Shown: positions 5,777 through 59,030 of the stretch, piece after piece
Numbering within the stretch: the stretch's first letter is position 1
Layout: every line of letters begins with the position of its first letter
Notes under the pieces: model-generated
The model's database searches: none
The model's input: the letters and a program-made list of their open reading frames with translations, nothing else
Told to the model about the DNA's origin: nothing
Program-made: the position numbers and the translations under genes
DNA from: Octopus vulgaris
Taxonomy: Eukaryota
Assembly (NCBI GenBank): GCA_951406725.2
Contig: OX597829.1
Location: 6,944,001 to 7,008,000, forward strand
Length of the DNA: 64,000 nucleotides
Reading direction: 5' to 3'

Positions 5777-5916
5777 ATTGTTGTATTTCGGAATGGTCAT
5801 TTTGCCAGTTTAGCCAATAAAAACACACGCACTATATATTTGGTGTTACTTTGCTTCAGTGTTATTTATTTTTTACATTAAACTTAATCTTATTACGGCC
5901 AGAGTTCTTTCGTCAC
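5777..5916. repeat. Interspersed repeat shared with 56291-56447 (HHR-bearing family)
   Basis: attgttgtatttcggaatggtcattttgccagtttagcc...gagttctttcgtcaca near-identical at both loci. Confidence 0.85.
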
Positions 5917-5940
5917 ACTCCTGTGACCGCATCAGTGGTC
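5897..5940 (-). ncRNA. Minimal hammerhead-like motif (variant core)
   Basis: Minus: gacca-CTGATGC-G-GTCAC aggagt GTGAC-GAAA-gaac-TC-tggcc; 5-bp stem II, stem I 4/5 bp, A9 replaced by C. Confidence 0.5.
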
Positions 5941-8236: not shown

Positions 8237-8304
8237 TATACTAATACATTTGTTTGTTTATACTCCACTTGCCTCCGTCTTTTGTTTATTTTCGTAAACT
8301 TCCC

Positions 8305-8335
<31 letters not shown>

Positions 8336-8404
8336 CGGGAAAGTTTACGAAAATAAACAAAAGACGAAGGCAAGTGGAGTACAAACAAACAAATGTATTA
8401 GTAT
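8237..8404. repeat. Inverted repeat around a (TA)n spacer, at the end of an HHR-bearing element
   Basis: atactaatacatttgtttgtttatactccacttgcc...gtaaactt mirrored by aagtttacg...ggcaagtggagtacaaacaaacaaatgtattagtat. Confidence 0.85.
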
Positions 8405-9088: not shown

Positions 9089-10113
<1,025 letters not shown>

Positions 10114-18162: not shown

Positions 18163-18284
18163 CCCATGCAATTCATCAAATCCTAACAGACACCACACCA
18201 TATCATAGAATTTTATCTTAATACTTTAAAATGAAATTCTATGATATGGTGTGGTGTCTGTTAGGATTTGATGAATTGCATGGG
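18163..18284. repeat. Perfect 51-bp inverted repeat with 20-nt loop
   Basis: 18163-18213 is the exact reverse complement of 18234-18284; imperfect extension to 18147/18301. Confidence 0.9.
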
Positions 18285-22544: not shown

Positions 22545-23973
22545 GCATACATATGTATATGTATGTATGTATGCATATCTAGGCTAATAGATAGACAGAT
22601 AGAAAAGATATAGTCAGACTCACAACCTATGCTAGTGACTACAGTGTTCAGAAAGATAGAAGATTACTATACGATGAAGCTGCATGCCATATTTGGTTTA
22701 CTACGCAATACATACACATCTCTCTGACTTGCCAATTACTTTGATAATCTTTGCCAAGTTGCTGCTACTCTACACTGTCGCAACCAATTTAATAATTCTC
22801 TTTTCCTTCTTTGCCAATTTGCTAGTTGTCCAAACTTGTTTGGCAACTTGCCGGATCTCCAAATGAATTGTGCATTGATGTATCAAGAGAATACATGCAT
22901 ACATACAAACATACTTACACACACACATACATAGATGCATACAAATATACATACACACATGCATACATTCAAACATATGCACACACACACATAAACTTTT
23001 TTTGTGTGAGTGCATCTATTTTATGGATGTACATATATACAAAGACACACACAGACAAATACACGAACACACACACATCCACAGTCATATATATGTGTAC
23101 ATATACAAACATACGTACACACATACATACACACAAATATATATATGTATCTCTATGTGCGTATGTATGTGTGTATGTATAGATCTGTGCATCTGCATAA
23201 GCACATATGTATGTATACATATAATGATTTTTGTATATGTATATAAATATGTGAGTATGTACGTAGAATTGGATGGATGGATAAATACGTGTATGTATAA
23301 ATACTCACGGTGCAGTGTGATTATTAGCAGGTAAAGATCTACCCAATCACCGTTTCTTAAAAAAAGTACTGATCCGATGTTGTCGTTTGGCGAAAGTTGC
23401 AGAAGCATTACGGCATTTATGCTGGATCTTAGTTTTCTGTTCTGAACTCCCATTTCGCTACTGATTCAAACTATTTCTGTCCTAACACCGCACCACATCG
23501 AATATGTTTCATGGCGTTTAGATAAGAGCTTTGCTGGTGTATGGGCTATTGCTACTTTCCATAATGCAATCTCTGACTACATCTCAGCAGGCAGTAGCCC
23601 ATACATAACAAACACAGACTAAGAGAGTTTGGAGGGTCGTGGATGTAAATTCATCAGGTAGAATCTCCGTAGGTTCCCATCAGAAGCAACCGATATTACG
23701 TTTTCCGGCTTGTTTCTAAAACGCGACCAACGGAGACTATGGATATTATCAGTCATCTAGTTCTTTGTCTGTCTTTAAAATTCCTACCGATTGTCTTAAG
23801 CTTGAAGGATTCTTTCTAATCAAATGTCCGTGGTACCGGAGCCATCACTTATTAATGCGGAGAAGTAGCAGTTCAACATGTAAACTCTCACTGATCTCGG
23901 AGCTATACACTCTGTCTAGTAACGTTATTTCAGAAATCCTTCGGAAGAACCTCATTTTGGTTGCTTATATTCG

Positions 23974-24100
23974 TGACACCATCAAGAGTGATACCGGAAT
24001 GGACATAGCCAATCTGAAAGAAGCGGCCCAGGATAGAACTGACTGGAGGACACTGATCCAACGAGTAACCGAGAGTCGACTTCGACTGAGCGGATAAATA
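23974..24100 (+). mobile_element. RTE LINE 3' end fragment
   Basis: [40 protein letters not shown], matching the end of the 27332 element. Confidence 0.85.
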
Positions 24101-27056: not shown

Positions 27057-27278
27057 ATGTATGCATATATGTATACACAAACACACATATATACGTTATT
27101 AATAAATCTGCAAAGACATCAGTTTCGAACAGTTTTGGCTGGGAATGGAACAAAAAATAAGGTCATATGTATAAATACACAATACATTGATAGACACATA
27201 TTTGAAATTGGTTTGTTTCATTGGTCGTTTCAACCAACGGTCTTTTCAATAACACTGGTTATATCAAATTAAAATTAG

Positions 27279-27331
<53 letters not shown>

Positions 27332-27333
<2 letters not shown>

Positions 27334-28322
27334 TGACAAGTTATGGAAATGTCTGGAGGAAATGGGAACACCTTTACACCTTGTCCAGCTTATTAGTTCA
27401 CTCTATCGAAACCAAGAGGCTACAGTACGGACACCATATGGCGACACTGATTGGTTTGAGATTGGAAGAGGCACTCGGCAAGGTTGCATCCTGTCACCAG
27501 CAGCCTTCAACATGTACACTGAAAATGTCACGAGGAATGCAGGCCTGGAGAATAGCAGCATTGGAATGAGGATTGGAGGAAGAAATACTAATAACCTTCG
27601 CTATGCAGATGATACAACCCTGCAGGCAGAAAATAATAAGGATCTAGAGAATCCTGCTAGTCAAGAAAACGAAGATCATGTCAAAAGCAGCCACAACAAA
27701 CATCAGCATCAAGATCGATAATGAAGAGATCGAAGTGGTTGATGATTTCATCTTCCTTAGCTCCAAAATAAATCGAGATTGTGACTGCACTCCAGAAATA
27801 AGACGGCGGATAGCACTAGGCAGAGAGGCAATGGTCAGCATGAGCAAGATCTGGAAGAGTAGAGACATCAGACTCACTACCAAATGCAGATTGGTGAATG
27901 CAATCGTCTTCCCAATAGCAACATATGGATGCGAGACCTGGACACTAAGGAAAGCTGACCAAAAGATAATTAATGCATTCGAGCTTTGGTGTTGGAGATT
28001 TTTACGGATTCCATGGACAGCGAGGCTCACCAATGGAGAAGTTCTTAACCAGATCAAGCCGAAATTGTCGCTAGAAGCTAGGATCACCAAGCATAGATTG
28101 ACATATTTTGGTCATATTATGCGGAGAAAATCCCTGGAGAAGGATATCATGCTCGGAATGGTCAGTGGCAACAGAGGAAGAGGCCGACCAAGAACCCGCT
28201 GGCTTGACACCATCAAGAGTGATACGGGAATGGACATAGCCAATCTGAAAGAAGCGGCCCAGGAGAGAACTCGCTGGAGGACACTGATCCACCGAGTGAT
28301 CGAGAGTCGACTTCGATTGAGT

Positions 28323-28326
<4 letters not shown>
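27332..28326 (+). mobile_element. RTE-clade LINE, 5'-truncated and frameshifted
   Basis: GTRQGCILSP and NNLRYADD RT motifs; [31 protein letters not shown]-terminal motifs; flanked by (TA)n. Confidence 0.92.
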
Positions 28327-28401
<75 letters not shown>

Positions 28402-28423
28402 TATATATATATACATACATAAT

Positions 28424-28470
<47 letters not shown>

Positions 28471-28489
28471 ATACACACACACACAGATA

Positions 28490-28521
<32 letters not shown>

Positions 28522-28529
28522 CATACATA

Positions 28530-28590
<61 letters not shown>

Positions 28591-28598
<8 letters not shown>

Positions 28599-29340
28599 CA
28601 ACAATTGAGGGTAAAATTAATTAATTATTAATCAATTTCACCAAGTATTCAGTATGTAAAGGGACCATTTTAGGCGAATTCAAAATATTACATCATATAT
28701 AGGGGCTTAGTAAAATAAATTACTTTGCCACATACTGAACTCATTAGAAATAGCAGCTAAAGAAATTTCTTCAGTTATTTCTAATACTTAAAGAAGATCA
28801 CTCTCAGATAGTGTTTGCCTAAACCAACTCACAAAGGTATGGGGGAAAAAACATTAAAAAATCAAGTGCAAAGGTTATTTGAGAACGTACGTTTCTAGAT
28901 TAGTCAATTCGACATTTCTTTCGTCAGCTCAGAATTCCTTGAATCGTATTTGGGAACACTGAAAGTTGGGAGCATACCCTTTCGGCTTCTCATCACCTCT
29001 AGAATTCTGCTCGAACTAAAAGTGCTATCAAATCCGAATATGCAAGCGAAGAATTTCTGCTCTCCCCTTTCCACCAGCGTGGGTTAAAATTGACAAACAC
29101 CATGTATTAACGGTGAAAACCGCAGTATTTAACAGAGAGATGAATTATAATTTCAACAATTGAGGGTAAAATTAATTAATTATTAATCAATTTCACCAAG
29201 TATTCAGTATGTAAAGGGACCATTTTAGGCGAATTCAAAATATTACATCATATATAGGGGCTTAGTAAAATAAATTACTTTGCCACATACTGAACTCATT
29301 AGAAATAGCAGCTAAAGAAATTTCTTCAGCTATTTCTAAT
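28591..29340 (-). mobile_element. Non-coding Penelope-like pLTR / retrozyme-like element (555-bp unit plus 195-bp repeat)
   Basis: 28591-28785 repeated almost exactly at 29146-29340; related to the 9205 element; one HHR. Confidence 0.75.
28880..28931 (-). ncRNA. Type-I hammerhead-like motif
   Basis: Minus: tgag-CTGACGA-A-AGA aat GTC gaatt GAC taa TCT-A-GAAA-cgtacg-TT-ctca; palindromic AACGTACGTT. Confidence 0.65.
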
Positions 29341-29379
29341 TGACGAAAGAAATGTCGAATTGACTAATCTAGAAACGTA

Positions 29380-29848
29380 CCCAATAGCAACATATGGATG
29401 CGAGACTGAAGAAATTTCTTTAGCTGCTATTTCTAATGAGTTCAGTATGTGGCAAAGTAATGGATTTTCACTAAAGAAAGCTGACCAAAAGATAATTAAT
29501 GCATTCGAGCTTTGGTGTTGGAGATCATTACGGATTCCATGGACAGCGAGGCTCACCAGTGGAGAAGTTCTTAACCAGATCAAGCCGAAACTGTCGCTAG
29601 AAGCTAGGATCACCAAGCATAGATTGACATATTTTGGTCATATTATGCGGAGAAAATCCCTGGAGAAGAATATCATGCTCGGAATGGTCAGTGGCAACAG
29701 AGGAAGAGGCCGACCAAGAACCCGCTGGCTTGACACCATCAAGAGTGATACGGGAATGGACATAGCCAATCTGAAAGAAGCGGCCCAGGATAGAACTCGC
29801 TGGAGGACACTGATCCACCGAGTGATCGAGAGTCGACTTCGATTGAGT

Positions 29849-29852
<4 letters not shown>
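29380..29852 (+). mobile_element. Duplicated RTE 3' segment with templated inverted insertion
   Basis: Near-identical to 27911-28326 and followed by the same compound microsatellite; 29406-29461 is an inverted copy of the neighbouring element. Confidence 0.85.
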
Positions 29853-29915
<63 letters not shown>

Positions 29916-29937
29916 TATATATATATACATACATAAT

Positions 29938-29988
<51 letters not shown>

Positions 29989-30472
29989 GCTATCGATGTT
30001 GACGATAGAAAAATCTCCGTTCCCCAGTATCACTGTATCCGTTTCTATCGTAATGTGGGGTGGGAGTCAAATTCTTCATTGATCAATAACAAGAAAATAC
30101 AGTGTATTTAGACAGCTTCTTTTCTTTTCCTTCTTTTCATCTTGTTAATTTATTGATTTATTGGCTTATATATTTTCGACACATTCTAGGCCTTGACATC
30201 CAGCCAGCCATTTATCTATCTGTTTGTATCTGTATTCTTTTGGGTTTTTTTTATTTTTTAGCTTTTTATTTGTTTTATTTATTTGACCGCAGCCATGCTG
30301 GTGAACCGCCTTGAAGGGTTTTAGTCGAAAAAATCGACATTACCATTTTTTGAAGCGTAGCATTTATTCTATTGGGATCTTTGGGCGTAAAGATAGCTTA
30401 CGAGGAGGTAAACTCACCAACACAGGTTGTCAAGCGTGGTGGGGAACAAATACAAACACACACACACATATA

Positions 30473-40916: not shown

Positions 40917-41477
40917 GGTTATCAGCATATTAGCATAGAAATAATTTTCTTTTGCCCTTGTTTATAAGTTGTTTATAATTTTAACCTTTAAAGATAATTT
41001 GATATGCTACCACTTTTTTGATGAAATTTTTTTCTGTAAAAAAACTTCATCCTATATTAGTAATAGACTTATTACTATTCGCTATAGGGACTGGTAACCA
41101 TTATAAGCTGTGGTGGGGAACAGTTCACACGTGTGCAGGGGCTGACCAAAGGATTTTATATTTAGATATATCTGGGGGTACTTATATGTACTCATGACTT
41201 TTGCTTCGGCTTTTTTCTTTCCATGGGTACATGTATTTCATTTATTTTTTTTTTCGTATTTTCTACTGAAGAGGAAAAAGTTATGAAATTATAACCGAAA
41301 TTGATTCGATATAGAAATAACGAACTTTAATAAAAAATTCTGTTGGCTAGCTTTCATCGATTTCAGCACAACGTATTTCTGTAATGGGTATAATAATATG
41401 TGGAAACTGACGATTTAAAAGTCTGTTATCAGCATATTGTCATAGAAATAATTTCTGTAGCCCTTGTTTATAAGTTA
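40917..41477 (+). mobile_element. Penelope-like pLTR / retrozyme-like element (507-bp unit)
   Basis: atcagcatatt...gcccttgtttataagtt at 40921 and 41428; contains the HHR at 41260; related to the 56450 element. Confidence 0.7.
41260..41317 (+). ncRNA. Type-I hammerhead ribozyme candidate
   Basis: tttcta-CTGAAGA-G gaaaaa GTTAT gaaatt ATAAC C-GAAA-ttg att cga-TA-tagaaa; 6-bp stem I, AUA site. Confidence 0.7.
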
Positions 41478-49689: not shown

Positions 49690-50477
49690 GTGTGTGTGTT
49701 TACATATTTATATACATGGATACATAATACACATTAATCAATAAATAATGGCATTTAAATATTGGGTTGAAAAAAACCTTTTGGATGGAGAAAAGACAAA
49801 ACTGCCTGTGGGAAACGAACACACATTTCATGTAGATATGACAAGTATTCTAACTATTGGACCAAACAAATCTGTCGTGTTTCTCTATCCATTTTATAAA
49901 CTTTATTTTAAGTAATATTGACATGCTTTATAGCTTCAGGTGTGCTTTGAGAGTCACTGTTCCCAAAAAATGTGTGGGCGTGTGTGGGCGCACGTGTCTG
50001 TGTGTGTGTGCGTGTGTTTGTATACATATATGTTTTCTAGTTTTACTTTCTATATCTTTATCTATTGTTACACACACACACGCACATACACACACATACG
50101 GTTGCACTCACATATACATACATACATGCATGCATACATACACACACATACATACATACACACATACATACATACATACATACACACACACACATACATA
50201 CATACATACATACATGCATGCATGCATGCATGCATGCATGCATGCATACACACACACACACATACATACATACATACATACATACATACATACATGCATG
50301 CATGCATACATACACACACACACACATACATACATACATACATCCATACATACATACATACATACTGCAATATATTTTAACTGAGATCATAAACCAGCTG
50401 TTCCACATGTTCATTAATGATGATAAACCTATATTAAAAATGAAACCGATATGGTATTATTGAATTTTGAAATAGAA

Positions 50478-56229: not shown

Positions 56230-56449
56230 ATAATATATATGTATGTATGTATCTATGTATTTATATATAGATACATATATATATATATATATTGTTATAT
56301 TTCGGAATGGTCATTTTGCCAGTTTAGCCAATAAAAACACACGCACTATATATTTGGTGTTATTTTGCTTCAGTGTTATTTTGCTTCAGTGTTATTTATT
56401 TTTTACATTAATCTTAATCTTATTTCGGCCAGAGTTCTTTCGTCACATA

Positions 56450-57089
56450 TAATTTATATCTAATGTAGGATAACATTTTTTTCGAAAAAAATTCTATCAA
56501 TGGCCAGCATATTAAAAAATACTTTTAAAGGTTAAATTATAAACACCTTATAAATAAGGGCATATTTGGCATTAGAAATTTTTTCGTTTGCCCTTATTTA
56601 TAAGTTGTTTATAATTTAACCTTTAAAGGTATTATTTAATATGCCGGCCATTGATAGAATTTCTTTTCCGAAAAAAATTTTATCCTACATTAGATATAAA
56701 TTTAATAGTGTTCACTTCCGAACTCTCCCACTCTGTGAGTGCCTCAGTTCAAATCGCATGTGTCTTGAATGGGCTGGAGTATATCTATTTTGGATTTATT
56801 TGGGGCACTTAGTTGTGCTCATGACTTCGTGTTTGCTTCTTCCATGGGTATGAGTAAGTATCTCATTTACCTCTTGGCCACATGTATCACTGACGAAGGG
56901 AGGGTTCTTTATGAACTAACCCTGAAATCGGTCCGATATGGTAATAATGGAATTTTTTAGAGATTTCTGTCGGCCTTTTTTCGAGTAGCGTGCGTACTGG
57001 GGAAAAAAATATATGGTAATGGACAATATGTCCAATTTTCAGCATATTTGGCATTAGAAATTTTTTCGTTTGCCCTTATTTATAAGTTG

Positions 57090-57090
<1 letters not shown>
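56450..57090 (+). mobile_element. Penelope-like pLTR / retrozyme-like element (482-bp unit with inverted 5' arm)
   Basis: gcatatttggcattag...ttataagttgt at 56560 and 57042; 56450-56561 inverted relative to 56589-56702; intact HHR. Confidence 0.8.
56885..56943 (+). ncRNA. Type-I hammerhead ribozyme candidate, intact core
   Basis: tatca-CTGACGA-AGGG ag GGTTC tttat GAACT aa CCCT-GAAA-tcg gtc cga-TA-tggta; all three stems pair; predicted cleavage after A56938. Confidence 0.8.
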
Positions 57091-57164
<74 letters not shown>

Positions 57165-57819: not shown

Positions 57820-59030
57820 CCTTAGCAGTTCCAGTTGTTACTTATAGCTACAATGTGTTGAACTGGAATATGAGTGAAGTAAAGAATATAGATAGAAAAA
57901 TACGCAAGCTGCTGAGTTGTAATAGGATGCACCACCCAAAGGCAGACGTAGATCGCCTTTACCTTCCCAGAGCCCAAGGAGGTCGAGGCCTGATCCAATT
58001 TGAACTAGCTTACAAAACAACCACAATTGGACTGGCCAAATATCTCGAAATAACGAATGACTGGATGCACGAGCAATTGGCTGATAGGTGGGAGGAGAAA
58101 CCTCTGCACGGCAAATATGTGGCCCGTAACAAACAAGCTGATGTTGACCTGAAGCAAACCCATCAGTGGCTACGGAGCTCAGGGCTAAAAACAGAGAGCG
58201 AAGGTTTCATCCTGGCTGCTCAAGATCAAAGCCTATTAACCCGGAACTACCAGGCCAATGTGATGAAAAATGAAGCAGACCCAAAATGCCGATTCTGCAA
58301 CATGATTGAAACAGTGGACCACCTAATCTCTGGATGTAAAGTCTTAGCACCAGTGGAGTATAAATTAAGACATGACAGAGTTGGCCAATATCTACACTGG
58401 CTAATAAGTCGGCATTACAATATCAAAACTGCCGACAAGTGGTATAATCACCACCCTGAAGCTGTAACTGAAGGAGAAAATGTAACGATTCTGTGGGACT
58501 TTCCAGTACATACAGACCGAACCATCAAGGCCAATAAACCAGATATTGTTGTGAAAGACCAAAACAATAAAGTTTGCTTATTGGTCGACATGAGCATCCC
58601 CTGTGATCATAATATCTCGGCGAAAGAGTTTGACAAGCTCAGAAAATATAAAGACCTGCTCATTGAAATTGAGAAAATGTGGCATCTCAAGGCGGTTACA
58701 ATACCAGTGAATGTAGGAGCACTAGGAATGATCAAGAAGAGAACCGAAAATTATATGAGAATGATCCCTGGCTTACCATCCCTGCAAGAAGTGCAAAAGA
58801 TTGTCTTAACTGGTACATCACACGTATTGAGAAGAGCATTGTCGATGTGAGAACTATTACTACCCATGTATTTTAATTTAACTTAAAATTTTGTTTTTAA
58901 ATGAACGAACTAGTGAGTTTAGTTTAATGGCCTACCAATGTATACTATGAGTTCCTTTGCCCTAGGAGTCGGGAAGACACTCGGCAAGAAATGGAAGCAA
59001 ATTTGAAAGAAAAGGAAAAAAAAAGATAAC
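57820..59030 (+). mobile_element. R4/Dong-like non-LTR retrotransposon 3' part (REL endonuclease) inserted in (TAA)n
   Basis: ORF 57855-58850: HHPKADVDRLYLPRAQGGRGL, CCHC knuckle CRFC...HLISGC, RHD, KPDIV...D...KLRKY; TAA arrays on both sides. Confidence 0.88.

Follow-up and report, generated by a model that had tools for sequence, protein, structure and literature searches.

A dispersed hammerhead-bearing repeat of Octopus vulgaris as a probable non-LTR retrozyme copy, likely inserted by a Penelope-like enzyme supplied in trans

What kind of element occupies positions 56451-57089 of a 64,000-nucleotide stretch of Octopus vulgaris DNA (contig OX597829.1; the whole stretch is called the window here), and what brought it there? 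An earlier note, made from the letters of the sequence, had described a hammerhead ribozyme in a partial tandem repeat preceded by an inverted arm. Our analysis showed that 56451-57089 is one ordinary dispersed head-to-head copy of an abundant protein-less mobile repeat with a predicted self-cutting RNA motif. A full non-coding unit of 482 bp is located at 56560-57041 on the plus strand, the longest ATG frame in 56560-57090 having 70 codons, and it is followed on the same strand by the start of the next unit (57042-57089), which stops after 48 bp at a short end site. The claim of a 482-bp unit repeating its first ~50 bp was borne out, since the segment 56560-56613 recurs directly at 57042-57095 with a spacing of 482, of which 48 bp, up to 57089, are element and the remainder is TA tract. 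This (TA)n tract, read from the sequence at 57090-57114, adjoins the short end and is presumably the insertion target. The ~110-bp inverted copy said to precede the unit was also found, as a 112-bp arm on the minus strand (56451-56562) that is about 93% identical in alignment to unit positions 30-143 and that has a long end on its outer (3') side, where it enters a short TA stretch of the flank. The two arms meet head to head at 56559-56562, where the letters and the overlap of the alignments give 3-4 nt common to both (microhomology). An 86-nt tail at 56608-56693 (plus strand) is bounded by two fixed 3' end sites, and we infer that it is the region of enzyme binding and initiation. The left flank (56296-56450) is another repeat, present also at 5784-5917 and in several of the fetched loci, and the insertion at 56451 appears to have struck a short TA stretch at its edge.

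The unit contains a type I hammerhead with an extended stem I at 56878-56950 (plus strand), the core and three stems of which span 56885-56943. The core is composed of CUGACGA at 56890-56896 and GAAA at 56924-56927. Stem I pairs 56885-56889 with 56939-56943 in the descriptor (5 bp including one wobble), stem II pairs 56897-56900 with 56920-56923 (4 bp) and stem III pairs 56927-56930 with 56934-56937 (4 bp counting the A15.1-U16.1 pair, with a 3-nt loop), and the AUA triplet gives a predicted cut after 56938. The complete core (CTGACGA, GAAA, AUA) and the three pairing stems, of 5, 4 and 4 bp, were therefore confirmed as the note had given them, and the marks of the type I class are present, i.e., a CUGANGA plus GAAA core, an NUH site, three helices and an open-ended helix I. 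A strict hammerhead descriptor matched the window only at 56885-56943 and gave 0 matches in 100 composition-matched random windows, and a loose descriptor gave 3 matches in the window versus a mean of 0.06 in composition-matched random windows. Rfam returned no hammerhead for 56700-57085 at E values up to 10, so the hammerhead call here rests on the descriptor and on covariation; for the whole window, no hammerhead was among the best 150 of 225 Rfam matches. A weak match to the hammerhead model at 50397-50468 (E ~0.1), missed by the DNA profile, is either due to chance or a very old copy.

The note had also taken the 4-bp stem III as a route to monomeric cleavage, and in that form the claim did not hold. 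The predicted energy of stem III by itself is 0.0 kcal/mol, and the active fold of the subfamily A ribozyme, at -15.5 kcal/mol, lies 5.2 kcal/mol above the predicted minimum of -20.7 kcal/mol. The near-palindromic stem III can pair with that of a second copy, in a duplex predicted at -13.9 kcal/mol, and these three values together make dimeric cleavage as plausible as monomeric cleavage. Self-cleavage of the monomer is thus only possible, and is not indicated by the folding models. According to the excerpts available from PMC4209133, metazoan hammerheads mostly have a stem III of 1-2 bp, unlike the 4 bp found here.

Is the fold kept across the family? A diverged relative with a 507-bp unit had been reported at ~40917-41477, and it does exist: the copy at 40918-41476 (plus strand) belongs to the diverged 507-bp subfamily B, shows a spacing of 506-507, has a single arm that ends at the short site, and possesses its own hammerhead at 41260-41317, with a stem I of 6 bp, a stem III of 4 bp and a predicted cut after 41311. 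Our survey of the family covers three subfamilies distinguished by unit length, namely A (482 bp, the 56-kb copy), B (507 bp, the 41-kb copy) and C (469 bp), all of which keep the fold. Among eight hammerhead sequences (A, an A variant, B and C), 10 of 18 pairs were changed on both sides, across all three helices, and 93.8% of cells were paired versus 35-46% in slid-partner controls; these eight sequences represent 3-4 lineages and the structure was drawn from them, so the counts amount to a handful of independent compensatory events, yet these fall in every helix. The core-plus-three-stems test was passed by 26 of 35 A ribozymes and 25 of 40 B ribozymes in the top-similarity samples. The covariation seen by the note within the window is stronger genome-wide, but the 41-kb copy fits it poorly at one helix, where stem II has decayed to 2 bp while most of subfamily B has 4 bp. 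As this copy lost half of a stem that its subfamily keeps, single copies decay and selection acts on source copies. Compensatory change in all three stems shows selection on the fold among those source copies.

The tail is the best-conserved region across subfamilies: 61 of 87 columns were invariant in five copies from the three subfamilies, compared with 85/190 and 33/98 in the flanking body regions. It folds into predicted hairpins with one clear compensatory pair, in an alignment of seven rows of which one (L011) is partly flank. A lone copy of the tail region (unit positions 54-145) occurs at L196:1357-1452.

Other repeats are present in the window. A second hammerhead-bearing family lies on the minus strand at 28650-29474 and 9200-9953, with cores near 28927 and 9467 and a short palindromic stem III, and in its copy at 28.7 kb a direct repeat of 555 bp is accompanied by an inverted arm. 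Several reverse transcriptase (RT) fragments at 27206-30082 and 23720-24097 resemble RTE-type LINEs. A 341-aa C-terminal fragment of a non-LTR retrotransposon at 57825-58850, beside an (AAT)n tract, had only a weak zf-RVT match in Pfam and is taken by us to be R4/Dong-like. The long near-perfect DNA hairpins at 18164-18283 and 8259-8383 gave spurious Rfam microRNA matches and are possibly MITE-like.

The family is large. A 24-nt piece from the 3' half of the ribozyme had 504 exact matches in the 2.8-Gb assembly versus 0 for the reversed control, and the DNA searches gave 2,893 (A), 1,417 (B) and 2,678 (C) first-look candidates, of which 40 were scored in each search and among which the three sets may overlap. 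At 17 of 441 clean sites (3.9%) the window copy departs from the majority of subfamily A, the family mean being 4.2%; it is therefore an average-aged copy and not a specially preserved one, and its description as the best-preserved unit stands within the window only, not family-wide. The longest ATG frame is 70 codons in A and 58 codons in B, so the unit is without protein-coding capacity, and in the copies examined no ORF was found upstream of the unit, because the unit itself recurs there. An autonomous Penelope-like element (PLE) was considered and rejected on the ground that neither the unit nor the sequence upstream of long copies has an RT/GIY-YIG ORF. A tRNA-derived SINE was likewise rejected: ARAGORN found 0 genes in all 15 loci searched for a tRNA-derived head, and the B-box-like 9-mer at 56748-56756 is shared by A and C and not retained in B. 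In assembled contigs from four runs guessed to be RNA, family variants occupied 27-30 of 30 bins, contigs being blind to strand, level, ends and circles, and the count having no silent-stretch control, so that it speaks neither for nor against expression.

The ends of the insertions speak most directly to how the unit moves. For their analysis we used 120 fetched loci of A, at 97 distinct places, and 30 of B, all chosen by similarity and not at random. The 5' ends are scattered, and the 3' ends cluster at two sites 86 nt apart, a short one at unit position 48 and a long one at about position 134. Single-armed A copies ended at the short site in 23 cases, at the long site in 15 and elsewhere in 7. 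Among 57 head-to-head A insertions, 45 combined one short with one long end, none was short plus short or long plus long, and 12 had an unclassifiable end; 45 of 45 would have a probability of ~4e-15 if the two ends were independent. The window insertion obeys the same rule, its inverted arm providing the long end and its main arm the short end. The 12 head-to-head B insertions were divided into six short plus long, one long plus long and five unclassifiable. The terminal short-end motif was followed by a TA tract in 47 of 57 cases, and the terminal long-end motif in 22 of 37. The family thus bears the marks of PLE insertion, i.e., 5' truncation, partial tandems, an inverted 5' copy and a tail at one end only, and the Penelope-type signature that the note had recognised at one locus is better supported genome-wide, all 45 classifiable two-armed A insertions being short plus long. 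Microhomology at the junction was rejected as a rule of the family, since 13 of 45 junctions overlapped by at least 1 nt, 3 abutted and 29 had unaligned gaps.

An inverted arm with a partial tandem could also have been formed later than the insertion, or through twin priming of the LINE type, an RTE or R4-like LINE being the mobiliser; remnants of both are located nearby in the window, and the short overlaps at some junctions would agree with this. In LINE twin priming, the inverted part lies upstream in one transcript and does not overlap the rest, whereas both arms of the unit start at its 3' region, overlap each other and use two different fixed ends 45 out of 45 times, and neither poly(A) nor a simple-repeat tail of its own was seen beyond the TA target. 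We consider this origin very improbable. A closed repeating unit with variable 5' ends, two fixed 3' ends on TA and short-plus-long pairing is best read as Penelope-type copying, and in our judgement the locus is, with good probability, a copy of a non-LTR retrozyme that owes its insertion to a Penelope-like RT-endonuclease provided in trans. In this mechanism, a resident Penelope-type protein would bind the tail region of the unit RNA and make a nick in each strand of a TA tract. The two nicks would serve as primers for reverse transcription, one from the short site and one from the long site, and the far ends of the two cDNAs would then be joined into a palindrome such as that at 56451-57089. 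Excerpts of PMC11167929 describe a PLE protein that nicks and extends both strands and starts at two internal RNA sites bounding the tail, and those of PMC8557442 report partial tandems, inverted 5' copies, an often one-ended tail and TA targeting for PLEs.

Candidate enzymes are encoded in the same genome. The search for GIY-YIG elements gave 6,136 candidates, and 16 of the 150 scored lay in 781-aa open frames; intact elements with an RT and, downstream of it, a C-terminal GIY-YIG domain do exist. The 62 loci around GIY-YIG matches, taken from these 150, comprise at least four PLE families. In two families the ends are again fixed at two sites on TA, separated by 32 and 38 nt; the PLE at L097 is itself a head-to-head insertion with one short and one long end. 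One family carries a minimal hammerhead with a 4-nt palindrome, 128-170 nt upstream of its ends; the corresponding distances of the unit hammerhead are 151 and 237 nt. A young family with many intact copies (L094:1244-6460, also L091-L096) has a 479-aa ORF1 overlapping the 781-aa RT/GIY-YIG frame and terminal repeats of 456-504 bp, in which a scan found no canonical hammerhead. Unrelated hammerhead-bearing repeats were seen inside PLE loci as well (L100:7137-7224, L100 near 4034, L069, and L201 near 2361). Both kinds of element use the same targets, as is seen at L092:6547-6992, where an intact 781-aa element has, in the TA tract at its 3' end, a head-to-head copy of subfamily C.

Two observations here speak against the reading as a PLE-mobilised retrozyme: no autonomous partner was found in the 62 sampled GIY-YIG loci, and the 86-nt tail is more than twice as long as the tails of the sampled PLE families. 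None of the 62 loci showed homology between a PLE 3' region and the unit, the sole matches being separate inserted copies. An end motif common to the unit and one PLE family was examined and was not convincing. The end architecture of the unit is the same as that of PLEs, and its size is near that of the terminal repeats of the 781-aa family, so one may ask whether the unit is instead a terminal repeat (pLTR), truncated at its 5' side, that belongs to an autonomous Penelope-like element, rare full-length copies of which could have been missed with 40 candidates scored per search. We hold this to be improbable, as all sufficiently long copies run upstream into the same unit, up to three units, the unit has no homology to the sampled PLE ends, and the local PLE ribozyme is of the minimal type with its 4-nt palindrome and lacks a 4-bp stem III.

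What RNA did the enzyme copy? Every sufficiently long copy extends upstream into the same unit, the longest arm measuring 954 bp and a single array of three units 1,516 bp. The arms continue across the cut site to lengths of 1.5-3 units, which argues for a template that is circular or longer than one unit. None of 51 5' ends fell within 5 nt of the cut, where ~1 would be expected if they were uniform, in a set picked by sequence downstream of the cut, and no pile-up at the cut site was found in the biased set of all ends either (0 of 159); the template was thus usually something other than a cleaved linear monomer. Derived variants are common to both arms of one insertion at 27%, as against 6% between loci (at most 12% in 200 draws); for tandem units the values are 31% and 8%. 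Such sharing would fit one template molecule, and also a common source gene or gene conversion in the palindrome. Sharing of rare variants was seen at 8 of 42 and at 7 of 38 loci, and most rare variants were unshared (15 shared of 120 in inverted arms), which counts against our reading. For an editing signature there were 15 and 15 shared rare variants, which are small sets.

Two core-intact ribozymes one unit apart were present in 14 of 97 places, all from similarity-chosen sets enriched for long copies, and in 0 of 45 places chosen regardless of length, when direct tandems were sought within 3 kb. The rarity of long arrays, together with the one long-plus-long B insertion, is a further point against the retrozyme reading given above. 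The window locus has one ribozyme and so cannot release a unit-length RNA or a circle by itself; circles, if there are any, would have to be made by tandem source copies at other loci. With a single ribozyme and no downstream long site on the same strand, the window copy is likely a dead-end daughter, and as a single locus it is ordinary, a neutral one-ribozyme copy. Most likely, hammerheads in tandem source copies would excise the template RNA, which would then be ligated, and we lean towards a hammerhead-made circle over an uncleaved multimer. If the template were an uncleaved linear read-through of tandem copies, with the hammerhead serving another step or cutting with the aid of protein, the missing pile-up at the cut site and the active fold lying 5.2 kcal/mol above the predicted minimum would be accounted for. 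In the excerpts of PMC11167929, hammerhead cleavage was dispensable for PLE insertion in vitro, uncleaved RNA being the dominant substrate and ribozyme mutants still being inserted, and the part available of Li et al. (10.64898/2026.07.22.740005) reports 8 of 9 tested retrozyme dimers as uncleaved. Against this linear template stand the need for source loci longer than any product while long arrays look rare, the compensatory changes in all three stems, which point to selection on the fold among source copies, and the circles reported for coral, mussel and axolotl retrozymes in excerpts of PMC7229834. We give it a minority share of the probability. In its most specific form our proposal is tentative and less likely than not: a circle made by a self-sufficient hammerhead would be copied round from both nicked TA strands by a Penelope-type enzyme unrelated to it in sequence, through a structured 86-nt module with two starts. 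If true, this two-start module would act as a transferable signal through which any small circular RNA could be integrated by a Penelope-type enzyme.

How does the unit compare with known systems? As described in excerpts of PMC8557442, PLEs that carry the endonuclease (EN+) share with the unit 5' truncation, partial tandems, an inverted 5'-adjacent copy, a one-ended tail and TA targeting, and the EN+ PLE Poseidon-Ac likewise has a hammerhead upstream of its RT start sites in the excerpts of PMC11167929. The one-sided tail is thus already known for PLEs themselves. The unit differs from EN+ PLEs in having no ORF, a tail of 86 nt instead of 30-40, a canonical and not a minimal hammerhead, and no sequence match to the sampled PLE families. 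Non-autonomous Chlamys elements (such as MRC1) are, like the unit, non-coding and, as proposed for the unit, PLE-dependent, with pLTR-like and head-to-tail insertions; in the excerpts of PMC8557442 they generally share 3' sequence with an autonomous partner, while no partner was found for the unit in the 62 sampled loci, and most Chlamys elements have no hammerhead, while the unit has one. A full-text literature search, outside subscription journals, Repbase entries and preprint supplements, found no paper on cephalopod retrozymes or on retrozyme insertion ends.

Metazoan non-LTR retrozymes, as far as the excerpts of PMC7229834 and 10.64898/2026.07.22.740005 describe them, are similar to the unit in being non-coding and AT-rich, with one type I hammerhead per unit, tandem copies, thousands of copies per genome and co-occurring PLEs, and the unit matches them in all features that can be tested from DNA. 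Its size falls within the retrozyme range of 51-972 bp given in the part available of Li, Clavereau and Pollet 2026 (10.64898/2026.07.22.740005) and exceeds the 170-400-nt circles in that of Cervera and de la Pena 2020 (PMC7229834). Unlike metazoan retrozymes, the family consists mostly of dispersed copies of less than two units and is known here from DNA alone, and the insertion-end signature is not among the retrozyme features in the excerpts of PMC7229834 and 10.64898/2026.07.22.740005. In the same excerpts, the proposal that PLEs mobilise animal retrozymes is built on the ribozymes they have in common, on their co-occurrence and on the similarity of pLTRs. Where those earlier proposals, so far as excerpted, do not draw on insertion ends, the strict pairing of a short with a long end reads the PLE route from the insertion sites themselves, and the two end sites are the nucleotides at which the existing in vitro PLE assay, as excerpted from PMC11167929, should start on the unit RNA.
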